In this document: positions 43,344 through 49,608 of the stretch, one piece after another
How positions within the stretch are numbered: the stretch's first letter is position 1
Layout of the letters: the number at the start of each line of letters is the position of its first letter
From: Polyangiales bacterium
Lineage (GTDB): Bacteria > Myxococcota_A > Polyangia > Polyangiales > Polyangiaceae
Reading direction: 5' to 3'
Length of the DNA: 64,000 bases
Assembly: GCA_038231275.1 (NCBI GenBank)
Contig: JBBRLQ010000001.1
Coordinates: 256,001-320,000, forward strand
The notes under the pieces: model-generated
What the model was told of the DNA's origin: nothing
Seen by the model: only the letters and a program-made list of their open reading frames with translations
Databases searched by the model: none
Made by a program: the position numbers and the translations under genes

Positions 43344-45674
43344 TCAGGGCGCCAGGATGGCGGCGGCGCGGGCTCCGAGCGTGAGGTTCACTGCGCCGGC
43401 CGTCACGGGGACGTCGAGCCCGCCGAGGCGATCGTGGAGGGTGCCGTCGTTGAGGAGCCCGGCGGGGAGCGTGGCCGACACGGTGCGCGACGTCGTCGAC
43501 TTGTTGATCGCGACGAGCGCCGCGCCCGTCGCGTCTTTCCGCGCGAAGACGAGGACGTCCTGATCGGTGTTCACGACCGATACGTACGTGCCGCGGCGCA
43601 GCGGCGAGAGCTCTTTGCGCGCGACGCCGAGCTTTCGCGTGAAGGCGAGCGTCGCTTGCTCGTCGGCGTTCAGGGTCTGATCGCCGCGCCACATGACGCG
43701 GTTGTTCGGATCGGCGCCGCCCCACTCGCCGTACTCGTCGCCGTAGTAGACCATCGGCGCGCCAGGGCCACCGAGGAGCCACGCCAACGCGACGCGCTCA
43801 CGCTGGTACGCGTCGCTGTTCGTCGGCGCCGGCGCGGGGTTCGTCCACTGATTGCCCGCGCTGCCCGGTTGGCTCGAGAGGGTGACGAAGCGCGGCGTGT
43901 CGTGGCTGCCGATGTACGGCGTCATCATCGCGCCCGCGGGATACTGGCTCAGCGCGTACTTCGTCCAGAAGTCGACGTGCGGCATGTTGTGCCCCGCGGA
44001 GTCGCTGACGAACGCGGTGACGGGAACCGCGTAGTAGGTGACGAAGTCGGCCTGGCCGTCGAGGCCGTTCGGGCCGATGTACCGGCTAATCGTGCCGTAG
44101 TCGCTCGCGCTGTTCGCGGGGTTGTCGCCCTCCCAGCCCATCGCCGTCTCGCCGGTCAAGAAGAGGCGCGTGCCGGCCTGCTCGAACTCGCCCCTCAAGC
44201 GCGCGCTCATGTTGATCGTGCAGATGTCCTCGACGTGCTTCACCGCGTCGATGCGCAGGCCGTCGAGATCGAACGTGTCGACCCACCAGACCGCGTCCTC
44301 GCTCCACGTGTCGACGACCTCGGCGTTCGTCCAGTTCACGTCGGGCATGTAGCCGGCGAACATGCAGTCGAGGCGGTGCGTCGTCCAATCGCAGTTGTTC
44401 GTGCCGCAGATGCAGCCGGTGCGGAACCACTGGGGGTGTTGTGTGAAGTAGTCGTGGTCCTGGTGGACGTGGTTCACGACGAAGTCTTGAAGCACGCGGA
44501 TGCCATGCGCGTGCGCCGCGCCGACGAGGGCCTTCAGCGCGTCGTTGCCGCCGAGGCGCGGCTCGACCTCGCGCGCCTTCACCGGCCAGTAGCCGTGGTA
44601 GCCCATCGTGAGGTGCACGCCGTCGGCGGCCATCCACGCGCCCTTGGGGTTCGTGTGGTACGGCGAGAGCCACAGCGCCCGGACGCCGAGCTGATCGAAC
44701 GTGCCGTTGTCGATCGCCTGCTTCACGCCCGCGAGATCGCCGCCCTTGAAGTCGGCGCGCGGGTCGACGTTCGCCGTAGGGGCCGCGTCGTTCGAGGGGT
44801 CCCCGTTCTTGAAGCGGTCGACCATCGCCATGTAGATGAGCGCGTCGCTCCACGAGTACGTCTCGCCTTCGACCCAGAAGACCAGGCGCAGCGTCCTTGC
44901 TTTGCGACCGGCCTTGTCGGTGGCGTCGACGAAGACCGTATATTTTCCGTCGCCGAGGCTCGGCGCGGTGATCGCGATCGTGTTTCCGTCGACCGCGAGG
45001 GTTGCGGTCGCGGCGGTGACGCTGCCGTCTTTGCGGAGCGTTGCCTTGAGGGACGCGGGATCGATGCCGGGAGGCGGCGCGCCGACGCCGTCCGCGTACG
45101 CGACGGTGGCCGTGAAGCGACCTTGTCCGGCGGAAGGGCGCTCGGTTTTGTGATCTTTGGTGGTGAGCGTCGGGAGGTGGCAATCGGCAACGCGCACCGC
45201 GCTGTTCTCGACGCCGCCGACGTACTTGCGCAGGCGGCCGCCGGGATCGAGCCCGAACGCTCCGTCCAAGACGACCTTGTAGCCGACGAGACCGGGCGAG
45301 AGCGGCACCGTCACGGCGTAGCCGCCGCTCCCGTCGGGCGTCATCGCGGCGCCGGCAGGGTCCCAGTTGTTCCACTCGCCCGAGACGGCGACCTTGCCGT
45401 ACGTCTTGCCGGCAACCGGGACGAACTTGAAGGTCGTGGGGCACGCGCCGCCCACGTCTCCGTCGAAACCGGCCGCGTCGAACCGCGGTCCGCTGTCGTC
45501 GCCCGGCGCGCCGCCGTCGGGGCCTGGGAGAACGCCGGTGCCGGTCGCGTCGCCGCCGCCATCCAGGGACGCTGCGCCGCCGCCTTCCGACGAGCCGCAT
45601 GCTGCGATTGTGACGGCGGCTGCGATGGCCAGCGCGAGCCCCACTCCTCGAAGAACGACGCGCGGTTGGAGCAT
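43344..45674 (-). CDS. alpha-amylase family (GH13) lipoprotein with CBM48-like N-terminal domain
   Basis: Lipobox IAAC; VAVSGEWNNW...YKVVLDG (CBM48-like); VDRFKNGD, GYHGYW, DFVVNH, DGLRIDAVKH, GET, GSHD, PMVYYGDE. Confidence 0.93.
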   Translation of the reverse strand: MLQPRVVLRGVGLALAIAAAVTIAACGSSEGGGAASLDGGGDATGTGVLPGPDGGAPGDDSGPRFDAAGFDGDVGGACPTTFKFVPVAGKTYGKVAVSGEWNNWDPAGAAMTPDGSGGYAVTVPLSPGLVGYKVVLDGAFGLDPGGRLRKYVGGVENSAVRVADCHLPTLTTKDHKTERPSAGQGRFTATVAYADGVGAPPPGIDPASLKATLRKDGSVTAATATLAVDGNTIAITAPSLGDGKYTVFVDATDKAGRKARTLRLVFWVEGETYSWSDALIYMAMVDRFKNGDPSNDAAPTANVDPRADFKGGDLAGVKQAIDNGTFDQLGVRALWLSPYHTNPKGAWMAADGVHLTMGYHGYWPVKAREVEPRLGGNDALKALVGAAHAHGIRVLQDFVVNHVHQDHDYFTQHPQWFRTGCICGTNNCDWTTHRLDCMFAGYMPDVNWTNAEVVDTWSEDAVWWVDTFDLDGLRIDAVKHVEDICTINMSARLRGEFEQAGTRLFLTGETAMGWEGDNPANSASDYGTISRYIGPNGLDGQADFVTYYAVPVTAFVSDSAGHNMPHVDFWTKYALSQYPAGAMMTPYIGSHDTPRFVTLSSQPGSAGNQWTNPAPAPTNSDAYQRERVALAWLLGGPGAPMVYYGDEYGEWGGADPNNRVMWRGDQTLNADEQATLAFTRKLGVARKELSPLRRGTYVSVVNTDQDVLVFARKDATGAALVAINKSTTSRTVSATLPAGLLNDGTLHDRLGGLDVPVTAGAVNLTLGARAAAILAP

Positions 45675-45739
45675 TGCGGGGGGCCTCGCCTACTAGAGGA
45701 GAAGGCTCTAGCACGGGCCCCGCGGGGCGCCACGAGAAA

Positions 45740-45759
45740 GTAACTCAGCGATGCGTTAC
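45740..45759. promoter_or_regulatory. 20-bp palindromic operator, copy 2 (GTAACTCA-GCGA-TGCGTTAC)
   Basis: 65 bp upstream of the GH13-porin-GH13 cluster; same consensus as 3531 and 62289. Confidence 0.65.
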
Positions 45760-45814
45760 GCTCTCACGGACCGCGACCGTGGACGCTCCCGGTGAGAGCG
45801 GATACCACGGCGCG

Positions 45815-47368
45815 ATGATCCGAAAAGGCGCGTGGGGTCTGTGGCTTGGGCTCGTGGCGGCGGGGCTCGCCGCGGCGTGCGGAGGGGACGCGGCGCCGGG
45901 GACGAAGAGCGCGGTCGACGTGCAGTCGTCCAAGATGGGCGAGACGTTCGCCGGGCAGAACCGCTGCAACCCGAAGAACCACGAGCGCCCCTTCATCATC
46001 GAGTGGGACGCGACGGACATGTCGAGCTTCGAGTCGCGCGCCGCGAACGACGTCGTCTTCGTGCGCTACCAAGGCTGCGACCTCATCGTGATCGACTCGT
46101 GCGCGGACGAGTCGGTACGCGGGACCTACGGCTCCTACAAGCCGGTCGAGTGGACGAGCGGCTCGGTCGAGTCGCTCGACATCGGCAACGAGGCCGAGCT
46201 CTACACGAAGCTGCCGCTCGGCGCGGGCTCGCTCGGTGGACGCGTGCACGGCGGCGAGAAGTTCCACATGGAGTACTTCGTCAGCGGCACGCGCACGGCA
46301 ACGCGCGACGCCGTCCACCGCGCGGATCTCGCGAAGCGTCCCGGCTGCAAGAACGCGACGCACTACGTGTACGCGTACAACCTCGGCGCCTTCGCGCTTG
46401 GTGCGCAGTCGAACCTCAACGCGCAGGCCGGCGCCACCGTGTGGGGCGTGGGAGCCGGTGGCGCGCGCTCCTCGTCGTCGAAGGCCGACAAGCGCGGCGG
46501 CGACATCGGGACGTGCCGCGGCGAGTCCGCGAAAGAGATGCAGACGTGCAAAGTCCCGATTCGCCTCACGCTGCGCGAAATCGCCGGCGACGAGAGCGCC
46601 GACGCCAAGGACGCGCGCGCGCCGGAGACCGCGGAGGCCAAGAACCTCGCCGGGCGCCTCCAAGCCACCACCGATCGCGAGAAGCAGGCCGAAGAGCACG
46701 CCCGCGCGGCGGAGACCAGGATCGGCGCGCGCGACGGCAAGAGCTGCGTCGCCGAGCTGGACGAGCACGACAAGCTCGATCCGCGGCCGAGCGGTCTGTC
46801 GACGAGCACCGGTTCGTACCTCGCTGCGAACCGCGCGCGCTGCTTGATGCTCGCGGGGCAGTGCCCGGCCGGCAAGGATCTGTTCCGCAAGGCCCTCGAG
46901 AAGAGCGCCGCCGCCGGCACGACCGGGCCCGCCGAGCTCGATCGCAAGACCGACGAGGCCGCGACGCTCTATTGCCAGGGCGGCACGATGAGCCCGCGCG
47001 ATCAGTACTTGAAGGCCGGAGCCGATCTCGAGGTCGCCGCATACAAGGAGAGGAAGGACGTCGCCTACTGCAAGGCCGCCTACGAGACCGCCAAGCGCCT
47101 CGTCTCGACCGTGAAGCCAAAGGACGATGACGATCCGGTGAAATTCGTCTTCGCGAACGTGCGCACCAACGCGCCGAAGTGCTTCGCGCGCGCCGGCGAC
47201 TGCGCCCAGGCGCTCGCCGTCTACAAAGAGGCGTGGGTGCTGGATCCGCTGATGTCGGAGGCCTCGAAGAAGCTGAACGAGCAGGGCCTGAAGGTCGGCT
47301 TCGACGGCGTCGTCGGCGGCAACGGCGTGTGCCCCAAGACCGCGAAGAAAGAAGCCTGGGAGAAGTAA
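45815..47368 (+). CDS. hypothetical lipoprotein: beta-rich N-domain and helical Cys-containing TPR-like C-domain
   Basis: Lipobox LAAAC; PFIIEW...VRYQGC...ATHYVYAYNLGAF; helical repeats with paired Cys. Confidence 0.75.
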   Translation: MIRKGAWGLWLGLVAAGLAAACGGDAAPGTKSAVDVQSSKMGETFAGQNRCNPKNHERPFIIEWDATDMSSFESRAANDVVFVRYQGCDLIVIDSCADESVRGTYGSYKPVEWTSGSVESLDIGNEAELYTKLPLGAGSLGGRVHGGEKFHMEYFVSGTRTATRDAVHRADLAKRPGCKNATHYVYAYNLGAFALGAQSNLNAQAGATVWGVGAGGARSSSSKADKRGGDIGTCRGESAKEMQTCKVPIRLTLREIAGDESADAKDARAPETAEAKNLAGRLQATTDREKQAEEHARAAETRIGARDGKSCVAELDEHDKLDPRPSGLSTSTGSYLAANRARCLMLAGQCPAGKDLFRKALEKSAAAGTTGPAELDRKTDEAATLYCQGGTMSPRDQYLKAGADLEVAAYKERKDVAYCKAAYETAKRLVSTVKPKDDDDPVKFVFANVRTNAPKCFARAGDCAQALAVYKEAWVLDPLMSEASKKLNEQGLKVGFDGVVGGNGVCPKTAKKEAWEK

Positions 47369-47462
47369 TCGAGAAGTAGCGGCCTGAGGGCGCCCTCGCC
47401 GCGAACGAGAAAGCGCGCAACTTCCGCGCGCCGGTGTCGACAGGGGATCGAGGAGACCCCCC

Positions 47463-48860
47463 ATGATCGGCACCGACGGTCCCAGAGCCCTTTCTACGCG
47501 CGAAAAGCTCGAGTCACGCGACGACGATCCGGCCGCGGTTCGCAGGCCCCCCGCGCGCTGCGCCGCGCCGGAGCCCGATTGGTCGTCGGTGCCCACGGAC
47601 TGGCACGCGCCCATGCCGCTCCCGAGCCCGACGCCGCCTCCGCCCGCGCAGCCCGCCGCGGCGCCCCCGCGTGATGGCACGTCGGGCCTGCCGTCGCTCC
47701 CGGCGTCGCCCGACGCCGTTCGCCGCACGCAGCTCGCGTGGCTCGCCAAGGATCTCCCCCACGTCGATCGCTCCGATCCGGCGCACGTCGTCGCCGCAGG
47801 TGACTACCGACTCCACGCGCAGCTCCAGAAGCAAGCGGGCGGCGGCGATGCGGTGGCGTATTGGACCGCGCACAACGTCCTCACGAAACGGACCGAGTTC
47901 GTGGTGGCGCCGGCGGCGCTGGAGGACTTCACGAAGAACGCGCATGTGTACGTCGATGCCGCGGCGCGCAGCGCGAGCAACGGTGTCCCCACGCATGGCT
48001 ACGAGATCGAGAGCCAACGCGTCGTCGAGGCGCTCATGAACGAAGGCGTCGGCGCGGCGCTCGGTCACCTCGGGCAGGCGTGGGGCGCGGCCGTCCGCGA
48101 TCCGCAGTGGTGGGGAAAGACGGCGCTCGACGTCGTCGCGGGAGCGGGCCCCGCGGTGTCGGCGCGCGGTGCCGGCGCAGCGGCGCTCGCCACGGAGGCG
48201 ACACCGCTGATCGACGAGGCGACCCAGCTCGCCGCTGCGCGCGCCGCGAAAGGAGTCCTGTCGACGGCGCGCGCCGCCGAGCCAGAGATCACCGCCACTG
48301 TGCGCGCCGCGGCCGAGGCGAAGGGCGGCACGATGGTCGGCCTCGAGGCTCGCCTCAAAACGGAGGGCTCGCTGACGCGCAAGATCGCGACGGACGCCCG
48401 AGAGGCCACGAAGGTCGATGCGGCAGCAGAGGGCGTGAAAGACGCCGTTCGCTACACGGCGAGCTACGACAGCGCCCGCTACGGCCAGGGCTTTCGCTCC
48501 GTCGTGAAGGAGCTCGAGGCCCAAGGTTACGAGGTCAAGATGCTGAAGAACACGTGGGCCACCGACGGGTACCGCGGCGTCAACACGAGCTTGCGCTCCC
48601 CGTCCGGCCAGGTCTTCGAGCTCCAGTTCCACACTCCCGAGAGCTTCGCCGCCAAGACGGAGGGACACCTCCTCTACGAAGAGTGGCGCGCGCCCGGGAC
48701 GTCGCTCGAGCGCCGCACCGCGCTCGAGGCGGAGATGAGCGAGCGCTTCCGGATGGTGCCCATCCCTCCCGGCGCCATCGACGTCGGTCTCCTCGAGACG
48801 CTCGCCCGTAAGGGCATCGGCATCATCGTTCCCGCCACCCACCGAGAGGCCACGCCATGA
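47463..48860 (+). CDS. polymorphic-toxin-like protein with C-terminal RelA/SpoT-type small alarmone synthetase (Apk/Tas1-like)
   Basis: RLK..SL.RK (R297), KDAVRY (D327, R330), KNTW, GYRGVN, FELQFHTPES (E386), HLLYEEWR; GAGGAG RBS. Confidence 0.85.
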   Translation: MIGTDGPRALSTREKLESRDDDPAAVRRPPARCAAPEPDWSSVPTDWHAPMPLPSPTPPPPAQPAAAPPRDGTSGLPSLPASPDAVRRTQLAWLAKDLPHVDRSDPAHVVAAGDYRLHAQLQKQAGGGDAVAYWTAHNVLTKRTEFVVAPAALEDFTKNAHVYVDAAARSASNGVPTHGYEIESQRVVEALMNEGVGAALGHLGQAWGAAVRDPQWWGKTALDVVAGAGPAVSARGAGAAALATEATPLIDEATQLAAARAAKGVLSTARAAEPEITATVRAAAEAKGGTMVGLEARLKTEGSLTRKIATDAREATKVDAAAEGVKDAVRYTASYDSARYGQGFRSVVKELEAQGYEVKMLKNTWATDGYRGVNTSLRSPSGQVFELQFHTPESFAAKTEGHLLYEEWRAPGTSLERRTALEAEMSERFRMVPIPPGAIDVGLLETLARKGIGIIVPATHREATP

Positions 48861-49090
48861 GCCAGATGAGATTTTTCGTGCGCAGCGACGACGGCAAGCC
48901 CTTCGCCGTCATACGGTTTCGCGAGCGGGACGACGGTCTCCGGACTTCGGACATCTGGCGCGAAGATCATTGGGAGGAAAATACGTAATACATTGGCAAG
49001 TACCACTTCGTCGGGTTCGATTCGGACACGGACGAAGTGAGCGAACGGCAGGCCAAGCGGGCCATCCTTGCCATGGGGGAATCGCGATGA
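48857..49090 (+). pseudogene. small immunity-like protein (77 codons) interrupted by an in-frame TAA at 48986-48988
   Basis: MSQMRFFVRSDDGKPFAVIRFRERDDGLRTSDIWREDHWEENT*YIGKYHFVGFDSDTDEVSERQAKRAILAMGESR*; ATGA overlaps with both neighbouring genes. Confidence 0.75.
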
Positions 49091-49608
49091 CCGAAGAGTT
49101 TTCACCGAAGGACACCCCGGAAACCGAGGCCCGCCGCTTCGCCGTCGAGGCGCACGCCGATCAGCGCTACGGCGACGCTCCGTACGTGACGCACCTCGGC
49201 GCGGTGCGCAGCGTCCTCGCCGACTTCGGGCACGGCGGCCCGCTCGCGATCGCGGCGTGGCTGCACGACACCGTCGAGGACACCAAGGTGACGCGCGAGG
49301 ACGTCGAGTCGCGCTTCGGCGCCGAAGTGGCGGCGCTCGTCTGGGCGGTGACGGGCACCGGCGCGACGCGCGAGGAGCGGAACCACAGCGCGTACGCGAA
49401 GATTCAGGCGCACCCCGCGGCGGCGACCCTGAAGCTCGCGGATCGCGTCGCCAACGTCGAAGCGTCGCGCACAGTGCCGGCGAAGCTCGCGAAGTACCGC
49501 GCCGAGTGGGAGTCGTTCCACGGCCACCTCAAGGGCCTCGGCGACGCGCGCATGTGGGCACGCCTCGCGCGCGGGCTCGGCGTGGAGGGCGACGTTCAGG
49601 GAGCGTGA
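49087..49608 (+). CDS. HD-domain small alarmone hydrolase (Mesh1/Aph1-like)
   Basis: AHADQRY...PYVTHL, AAWLHDTVEDT, FGAEVAALVWAVT, LKLADRVAN; 173 aa. Confidence 0.9.
   Translation: MTEEFSPKDTPETEARRFAVEAHADQRYGDAPYVTHLGAVRSVLADFGHGGPLAIAAWLHDTVEDTKVTREDVESRFGAEVAALVWAVTGTGATREERNHSAYAKIQAHPAAATLKLADRVANVEASRTVPAKLAKYRAEWESFHGHLKGLGDARMWARLARGLGVEGDVQGA

Follow-up and report, generated by a model that had tools for sequence, protein, structure and literature searches.

Alarmone synthetases that act as exported toxins have been reported in several settings. Ahmad et al. (2023, PMC10083569) described the Apk2-BcTis1-Aph1 system among the prophage MuF toxins of Bacteroides caccae and named its arrangement "bicistronic immunity"; according to their text, protection by either immunity protein alone is partial, the two in combination protect fully, and some loci lack the hydrolase gene. 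Ahmad et al. (2025, PMC12691689) presented the EAS family as modular warheads carried on Sec, LXG, XopAD, MuF, DUF4157 and Rhs/PAAR export domains and gave a tally of 1,369 candidates; the main text of that paper, as distinct from its supplementary lists, does not contain the string "myxo". It is also reported there that SaEAS, VpEAS and AaEAS, the last one linked to type VII secretion (T7SS), are all toxic in the cytoplasm and that VpEAS and AaEAS yield (p)ppGpp only. Here, we describe a three-gene cassette in a 64,000-nucleotide stretch of a Polyangiales bacterium (assembly GCA_038231275.1, contig JBBRLQ010000001.1, positions 256,001 to 320,000), which we call the window. The cassette encodes an SaEAS-type alarmone synthetase fused to a carrier domain, a small immunity-type gene that is interrupted by a stop codon, and a predicted alarmone hydrolase. 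It is probably a chromosomal polymorphic-toxin module for antagonism between bacteria. This type of cassette has already been published and the advance is incremental; what is new is the carrier, the orphan chromosomal setting in a myxobacterium, the Rel/Mesh1-type hydrolase with a housekeeping-like paralogue, and the nonsense codon in the immunity gene.

The three genes lie on the forward strand of a chromosomal contig, at positions 47463-49608 of the window, and their parts are as follows.

47463-48860, forward strand: gene 1, 465 aa.
47463-47702, forward strand: gene 1 residues 1-80, proline-rich N-terminal stretch with predicted disorder (AlphaFold2 predicted local distance difference test, pLDDT, 48-74).
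47703-48158, forward strand: gene 1 residues 81-232, conserved carrier (pre-toxin) domain, supported by the AlphaFold2 pLDDT (>=90 over about residues 81-220) and by the 114 representatives that share it.
48159-48257, forward strand: gene 1 residues 233-265, Ala/Gly-rich linker (pLDDT <50 over residues 232-247).
48258-48860, forward strand: gene 1 residues 266-465, SaEAS-type RelA/SpoT-homologue synthetase (predicted toxin) domain, with a match to 8VX3 and the catalytic residues present.
48857-49090, forward strand: gene 2, small cognate (immunity-type) gene, with ATGA overlaps on both sides and a TAA at 48986-48988.
49087-49608, forward strand: gene 3, predicted stand-alone HD-domain small alarmone hydrolase, 173 aa, with an ATGA overlap with gene 2.

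The stop of gene 1 and the start of gene 2 share GCCATGAGCCA at 48857-48860, and the stop of gene 2 and the start of gene 3 share GCGATGACCGA at 49087-49090. A preliminary description of this DNA had proposed three genes linked by two such overlaps, and both were recovered at the coordinates that it gave. The genome was assembled from a sediment metagenome and comprises 9.28 Mb in 164 contigs, with a completeness of 94%.

The C-terminal domain of gene 1 was originally recognized as a RelA/SpoT-type synthetase, and the comparison with solved structures supported this. In a sequence search of these structures, residues 266-439 matched residues 23-200 of the chain of SaEAS, the exported synthetase of Streptomyces albidoflavus (PDB 8VX3), with an E value of 2.4e-32. 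The motifs RLK (297-299), DAVRY (327-331, with D327 and R330), GYRGVN (369-374) and ELQFHT (386-391, beginning with E386) are found exactly where they had been numbered. Ahmad et al. (2025, PMC12691689) reported that the active-site residues of SaEAS include R124, N169, E182 and Q184 and that substitution of D121 inactivates the enzyme. In gene 1, R330, N373, E386 and Q388 match conserved residues of the SaEAS chain, and D327 faces the Ala of the crystallized D121A mutant in the printed alignment; the counterpart of SaEAS K154 is not resolved in the alignment. Residues 250-441 also match the last ~200 positions of the 2133-position XopAD/SKWP model (NCBIfam NF041399, E 1.6e-39), with a score of 135 bits that is far under the whole-protein cut-off of 2000. 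Among PHROG families, the domain matches the C-termini of MuF-type head proteins (5.7e-23), and Pfam has no family over it.

The same search gave an E value of 9e-4 for Tas1 (PDB 6OX6), and the sequence places the warhead of gene 1 with SaEAS rather than with Apk1/Tas1. The preliminary description had called it a (p)ppApp-making synthetase of the Apk type, and this part was not borne out: the closest relative is SaEAS, and two exported synthetases make (p)ppGpp only, so the label is not established. The predicted product of gene 1 could be (p)ppGpp, (p)ppApp or both.

Twenty-two proteins matched gene 1 at E<=1e-3, and just one of them (P0003, 73% identity) is a full-length homologue. In twenty others the likeness is confined to the C-domain (36-48% of the query), which there follows N-termini such as DUF6507, Phage_Mu_F and ADPrib_exo_Tox; PF14550 is a further one of these unrelated carriers, and the warhead also occurs in lipoprotein forms. 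Judged from these architectures, the warhead is modular. In a sample of 400 other genomes of the phylum, 8 contained it. The ratio of nonsynonymous to synonymous substitution rates (dN/dS) between gene 1 and its homologue P0003, which lies in the locus of the closest relative (L001), was 0.19-0.28, with 0.28 over residues 1-80. Separately, four Myxococcota genomes encode SaEAS-like proteins of 255-266 aa, measured as stop-to-stop frames (L009, L011, L012 and L013, in G305, G249, G356 and G281). Their N-termini resemble lipoprotein signals, with a hydrophobic stretch followed by Cys, and no small downstream open reading frame (ORF) is evident; these proteins are possible alarmone synthetases exported as lipoproteins.

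The N-terminal half of gene 1 is its most distinctive part. AlphaFold2, run with an alignment of the N-domain, folded residues ~81-228 confidently (137 residues at pLDDT >=90), and the predicted fold of ~150 residues consists of four beta-strands and then a helical bundle. Foldseek found no match of this model in the PDB at E<=1e-3. Pfam gave no family on the N-terminal half, PAAR, LXG, MuF and DUF4157 included, and the comparison with the Atlas returned only leads below 0.9 (MafB, EndoU and PT-TG clusters). Neither a signal peptide nor a lipobox is visible in the sequence of gene 1. An exhaustive HMMER search with residues 85-262 as the query yielded 114 cluster representatives at E<=1e-3, 29 of them at E<=1e-10 and 3 at E<=1e-30.

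A Pfam scan was made on 100 sequences, namely the N-terminal part from the window and 99 of the 114 representatives; P0111 and P0120, which are repetitive or very long, and the 13 weakest (P0125-P0137) were left out. The eCIS_core family (DUF4157) was present in 31 of the 100, upstream of the N-domain. The C-terminal domains included Gln_amidase (5) and RNAse_A_bac (3), and Ntox17, PT-HINT, AHH, Tox-REase-3, TNT, Ntox16, DUF6310, Hint_2, NTP_transf_2 and DprA_WH were found once each. The carrier directly precedes the toxin domain and is followed by a median of 177 residues, and a hidden Markov model (HMM) of the synthetase domain detected a synthetase warhead in just three of the 114 representatives. 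Because the N-domain precedes varied toxin domains and is accompanied by DUF4157 in 31 of the 100 proteins, its sequence relationships identify it as a carrier, or pre-toxin module, of polymorphic toxins that lacks both annotation and a characterized structure. The earlier proposal, a polymorphic-toxin module in which another carrier bears the alarmone-synthetase warhead, is supported by the 114 representatives and their varied toxin domains.

Gene 1 belongs to the short forms, in which the carrier starts before residue 130; these make up 68 of 113 proteins. Many of them (P0030, P0031, P0035, P0037 and P0038) have in their disordered N-termini a common short motif, NAPWL...Y.P..F.NPA, of which a weaker look-alike, EPDWSSVPTDWHAP, is found in gene 1 at 47560-47620. 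This motif could be a loading or export signal, as far as its sequence and position indicate. The carrier is single-copy in its own genome and occurs in 2 of the 400 other genomes. In one of these two (G310:C3, L050:8454-10246, reverse strand), an orphan short-form toxin lies in an ordinary context; it has 421 aa from a GTG start, corresponds to the 419-aa P0027, and shows a weak sub-threshold TNT match in its C-terminus. An ORF of 176 aa overlaps the end of this gene.

Gene 2 had been described as an acidic ORF of 77 codons. The small gene itself is confirmed, but its frame is not open: an in-frame TAA stands at 48986-48988 (codon 44, with 43 codons before and 33 after), to which the preliminary description alluded only through the words "stop repaired". 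The acidity is only mild, with 16 D+E versus 13 K+R. Its GC content is 0.577 versus 0.69-0.74 in the neighboring genes. At L001, the gene of P0003 has the same ATGA overlap with the ORF downstream of it, P0024, which is intact and encodes 85 aa. With its stop treated as X, gene 2 has 58% identity to P0024; the likeness extends over both sides of the stop, and the TAA faces an Asp codon (GAT). The dN/dS against P0024 was 0.206 before the stop and 0.207 after it, similar to the 0.19-0.28 of gene 1, and all these values are rough as dS is near saturation. The equal ratios on the two sides nevertheless indicate that the lesion arose recently compared with the divergence from L001. By its sequence conservation, gene 2 is a real conserved small gene.

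An artefact of one assembly was considered as the origin of the TAA and rejected. In another assembly of the probable source sample, one contig spans 48294-49700 at a depth of ~9 with no differences, TAA included; this assembly was built from the same reads and is not fully independent.

A complex was predicted between the toxin domain of L001 and P0024. The interaction prediction score from aligned errors (ipSAE) was 0.50 versus 0.27 for the best control, at least 75% of the contacts agreed between runs, the pLDDT of the partner was at least 79, and the verdict of the tool was "weak support". In the calibration, 58 of 80 solved complexes attained this mark, as did 2 of 110 mismatched pairs, and at ipSAE <=0.60 just 7 of the 80 solved complexes passed, along with both mismatches. 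For the small protein, the Atlas gave a lead only, a cluster ranked 30th (score 0.81) with Tis1_ImmP in 11% of its members.

Gene 3 was assigned from the outset to the stand-alone HD alarmone hydrolases, and our searches agree with this assignment: Pfam HD_4 matched at 1.2e-13 (51.5 bits versus a cut-off of 27.2) in a single-domain protein, Rel/SpoT hydrolase domains also matched, and the metal-binding and catalytic residues H36, H60-D61, E64-D65 and D119 are all present. A longer form of gene 3 starting at TTG 48970 (212 aa) was rejected, as the start codon of both close homologues corresponds to ATG 49087; the frame of gene 3 is nevertheless open back to this TTG (48970-49086, forward strand) and overlaps the 3' half of gene 2 in another frame. 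The implied assignment of the hydrolase to the Aph1 type was not supported. Among the solved structures, gene 3 matched Rel HD domains and MESH1 at 8e-13 to 3e-11, compared with an E value of 0.018 for Aph1 (7SMG), the 22nd of 22 structures matched. The signature residues of Aph1 are D24, R96, D116, R119, K133 and Y134; in a transitive alignment via Rel, rather than a direct alignment of the two proteins, gene 3 has Arg27 where Aph1 has the specificity residue D24. This argues against membership in the Aph1 family and would favor a hydrolase that accepts (p)ppGpp over a (p)ppApp-specific one. By sequence, gene 3 is a predicted stand-alone hydrolase of the Rel/Mesh1 type.

The genome harbors a paralogue of gene 3 that is 66% identical and stands alone beside unrelated genes (G000:C17:129784-130260; L046:5729-6229, reverse strand). 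It follows a pdxA-type gene, judged by the C-terminal sequence of the latter. This paralogue is likely a housekeeping small alarmone hydrolase, from which gene 3 may derive. A tree built from 32 hydrolase sequences placed gene 3, the paralogue and the hydrolase of a cassette in genome G290 in one clade with a support of 90/95, nested in an 11-row clade with a support of 97/98; the hydrolase of a cassette in G075 fell into a different clade. The subfamily of gene 3 is widespread in the phylum.

The order of toxin, small ORF and HD hydrolase, which had been predicted as a cognate set, recurs in two other Myxococcota genomes and in metagenomes. In G290, which belongs to the same class (G290:C3, L047:4116-6717, reverse strand), a toxin gene overlaps by ATGA with a 76-aa ORF, and this ORF in turn by ATGA with a hydrolase gene whose product shows 61% identity to that of gene 3. 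The toxin (P0140, 627 aa) is Tas1-like (6OX6, E 2e-9) and has Gly/Ala-rich hydrophobic stretches. In G075, an SaEAS-like toxin cut by the contig end is followed by a 92-aa ORF and then by an HD hydrolase that shares 25% identity with gene 3. In the metagenomes, 563 loci with an SaEAS-like domain were confirmed. Of the best 80, 64 extend for at least 800 nt downstream, and 15 contain a hydrolase on the same strand whose start lies <700 nt after the toxin; an ORF of 69-151 aa intervenes in 13 of the 15. These intervening ORFs resemble gene 2 in length, in a central Trp and in a C-terminal acidic helix (...[ST]xEEA...), and the small ORFs of 10 metagenome loci had no Pfam family. The carrier domain was found in none of the 80 loci, several of which have MuF-like or short toxins. 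In two metagenome loci with a GC content of 0.27 (L101 and L106), the short SaEAS-like toxin opens with a Cys-rich motif, HIS.SGKPA.CRAKGNCPRGS, and the hydrolase lies 77-80 nt downstream with no ORF between them.

Taken together, these data suggest the following mechanism. Gene 1 would be a modular effector in which the disordered N-terminus and the carrier act as a trafficking or pre-toxin module for the C-terminal synthetase. Inside a target cell, the synthetase would use ATP to pyrophosphorylate guanine and/or adenine nucleotides at their 3' position, at a rate that is toxic. In the producer, the product of gene 2 would bind the synthetase as a first layer of immunity, as in Apk2-Tis1-Aph1, and the hydrolase of gene 3 would degrade the alarmone that leaks past it, as a second layer. 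After the recent nonsense codon in gene 2, self-protection may rest on the hydrolase or on a toxin that is kept silent.

Geller et al. (2021, PMC8213781) presented DUF4157 as a marker of toxins tied to extracellular contractile injection systems (eCIS). A preprint (bioRxiv 10.64898/2026.05.27.728243) outlines eCIS cargo as proteins that begin with a disordered loading sequence, may contain DUF4157 and end in a variable C-terminal domain, and gene 1 fits this outline, minus DUF4157. A more speculative idea, which we consider rather doubtful in its joint form, is that the carrier and the W-containing N-terminal motif make up the recognition module of an undescribed export or entry route that is distinct from Sec, PAAR/VgrG, LXG and MuF and independent of DUF4157, and that enzymatic immunity is replacing a binding immunity that has just been lost. 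If this were true, the strain would capture a switch to a hydrolase immunity recruited from a housekeeping paralogue. The genome also contains a Baseplate_J-type gene (460 aa; G000:C113:1152-1706, L052) in a 2.3-kb locus that cannot be placed. This gene is a hint that sequence for a phage-tail-like structure is present but poorly assembled.

Several observations weigh against an exported toxin with two layers of immunity. On the side of delivery, no secretion genes were found within ~10 kb of the cassette, and the carrier matches no named secretion system, that is, it has no PAAR, LXG, MuF, DUF4157 or visible Sec signal. Phage_sheath_1 was not found in the genome, with controls matched in 3 of 14 genomes; the sole DUF4157 match in the genome is marginal (22.9 bits, in a zincin-like ORF at C2:644084), and the sheath gene of a type VI secretion system (T6SS) sits on another contig, C25. 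Searches of the genome for Phage_T4_gp19 (tube) and Pvc16_N (terminator) were blank, and these are uninformative as the control genomes were equally blank. On the side of immunity, a word-indexed homologue search with P0024 recovered P0024 alone and nothing beyond L001, and neither gene 2 nor P0024 has a Pfam family at E<=10, Tis1_ImmP included. Foldseek gave no match of the gene 2-type protein in the PDB at E<=1e-3, from a poor single-sequence AlphaFold2 model (pLDDT 61). BLASTP and hhalign showed no similarity of gene 2 or P0024 to the small ORFs of G075 and G290, and the comparison of gene 2 with the small ORFs of other loci was only suggestive (hhalign P 0.005, probability 7%). No hydrolase is present within 17.4 kb at L001, where the similarity to the window stops at 49043, inside gene 2. 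The subfamily of gene 3 mostly stands alone, with a synthetase toxin upstream in 2 of 31 hydrolase loci (the present one and G290). Finally, with gene 2 broken, the cassette may be decaying.

These points bear on three other explanations. The lack of nearby secretion genes would fit an intracellular toxin-antitoxin or abortive-infection system of the toxSAS type, in which the N-domain has a sensory or regulatory role and the other two genes encode antitoxins, comparable to FaRel with its hydrolase antitoxin. For toxSAS systems, antitoxins that are hydrolases exist (FaRel-ATfaRel, cited in PMC10083569), and several of the 15 hydrolase-bearing metagenome loci have short toxins (217-260 aa, stop-to-stop) without a carrier. 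Nevertheless, an N-domain that stands before many unrelated warheads and is accompanied by DUF4157 in 31 of 100 proteins is a signature of exported polymorphic toxins and not of toxin-antitoxin systems, and PADLOC gave no hits for genes 1-3 or the G290 proteins. We therefore regard an intracellular system as unlikely, and the use in phage defence that had been suggested for the cassette gains no support from the PADLOC result. The TAA at codon 44 of gene 2, the paralogue of gene 3 in an ordinary context and the lack of gene 3 at L001 could instead mean that the cassette is a decaying relic, out of use, with a toxin that is silent or near loss and a gene 3 that is a duplicated housekeeping hydrolase. 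Gene 1, however, is full length and has all catalytic residues and a dN/dS of 0.19-0.28; gene 2 shows no relaxation past its stop (0.207 versus 0.206), so the lesion is recent. Gene 3 retains its overlap with gene 2, the same hydrolase subfamily occupies the same position in the G290 cassette, and fragments with 94-96% identity in the runs of another study span the junction of the two genes. A relic is slightly less plausible still than an intracellular toxin-antitoxin system. Ordinary alarmone metabolism, in which a synthetase and a hydrolase tune the stringent response of the cell itself, might be considered as both enzyme families have housekeeping members and the gene 3 subfamily is common in the phylum; this is very improbable for a synthetase of a toxic exported clade that is fused to a polymorphic-toxin carrier, that is rare in the phylum (C-domain in 8 and carrier in 2 of the 400 other genomes) and that is separated from the hydrolase by a small overlapping ORF. 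A polymorphic-toxin module for antagonism between bacteria thus remains the probable function of the cassette.

The preliminary description placed the cassette outside any prophage or T6SS context, and the neighborhood is consistent with this, as the flanking ~10 kb on either side holds ordinary chromosomal genes alone: an S49 peptidase, SnoaL, a LamB porin, an alpha-amylase, two unknown lipoproteins, TetR and CBS. A lipoprotein gene of 564 aa (45674-47368, forward strand) lies directly upstream of the cassette and has no counterpart in L001. The DNA identity to L001 is 85% in the genes before this lipoprotein gene and 76% in the cassette after it. The absence of the lipoprotein gene from L001 between conserved flanks suggests that it occupies a second variable slot at the locus. 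A GC-rich hairpin (GCGCGC...GCGCGC) at 47412-47432 lies in the 94-nt spacer 5' of gene 1, with a T-run on the minus strand only. It was the sole result of the terminator scan, and the promoter scan returned no sites.

Myxococcota are predatory and kin-discriminating bacteria. Toxic exported alarmone synthetases and two-layer immunity come from phage, T6SS and T7SS settings, and the present cassette would add an orphan chromosomal locus of this phylum to them. The carrier domain, which is found in at least 114 protein clusters with many warheads and is unannotated in databases, is a target for work on toxin loading and entry. Moreover, a broken immunity gene beside an intact toxin gene and an intact hydrolase gene is a natural test of whether a hydrolase alone can protect the producer.

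In comparison with the known systems, the XopAD/SKWP type III effectors (NF041399) have the same warhead family as a C-terminal Rel-like domain, whereas gene 1 has neither SKWP repeats nor the context of a type III secretion system. Tas1/Apk1-Tis1 of the Pseudomonas aeruginosa T6SS (6OX6) belongs to the same fold family but is more distant (E 9e-4), and the present cassette lacks a PAAR domain and linkage to a T6SS; the Tas1-like toxin is P0140 of G290 instead. SaEAS is the closest solved relative of the C-domain of gene 1 (8VX3) and has the same catalytic residues; it differs by a Sec signal and by having no immunity gene, and the carrier described here is none of the six export domains listed for the EAS family. 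The DUF4157/eCIS toxins, as outlined in the sources above, share the disordered N-terminus and the variable C-terminal toxin, and 31 of the 100 N-domain proteins also carry DUF4157, but gene 1 itself does not, and no sheath gene was found in its genome, where the controls worked. The Apk2-BcTis1-Aph1 system differs from the present cassette in its MuF carrier and prophage context; here, the synthetase is of the SaEAS type, the hydrolase is Rel/Mesh1-like (E 0.018 to Aph1), and the small protein has no detectable likeness to Tis1 and is encoded by a broken gene. On the other hand, the two have the same order of genes, with a carrier-fused alarmone-synthetase toxin, a small protein that binds it in that system and may do so here, and a small HD alarmone hydrolase. 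They also agree in that the hydrolase accompanies only some of the loci, as gene 3 is present in the window and absent from L001.

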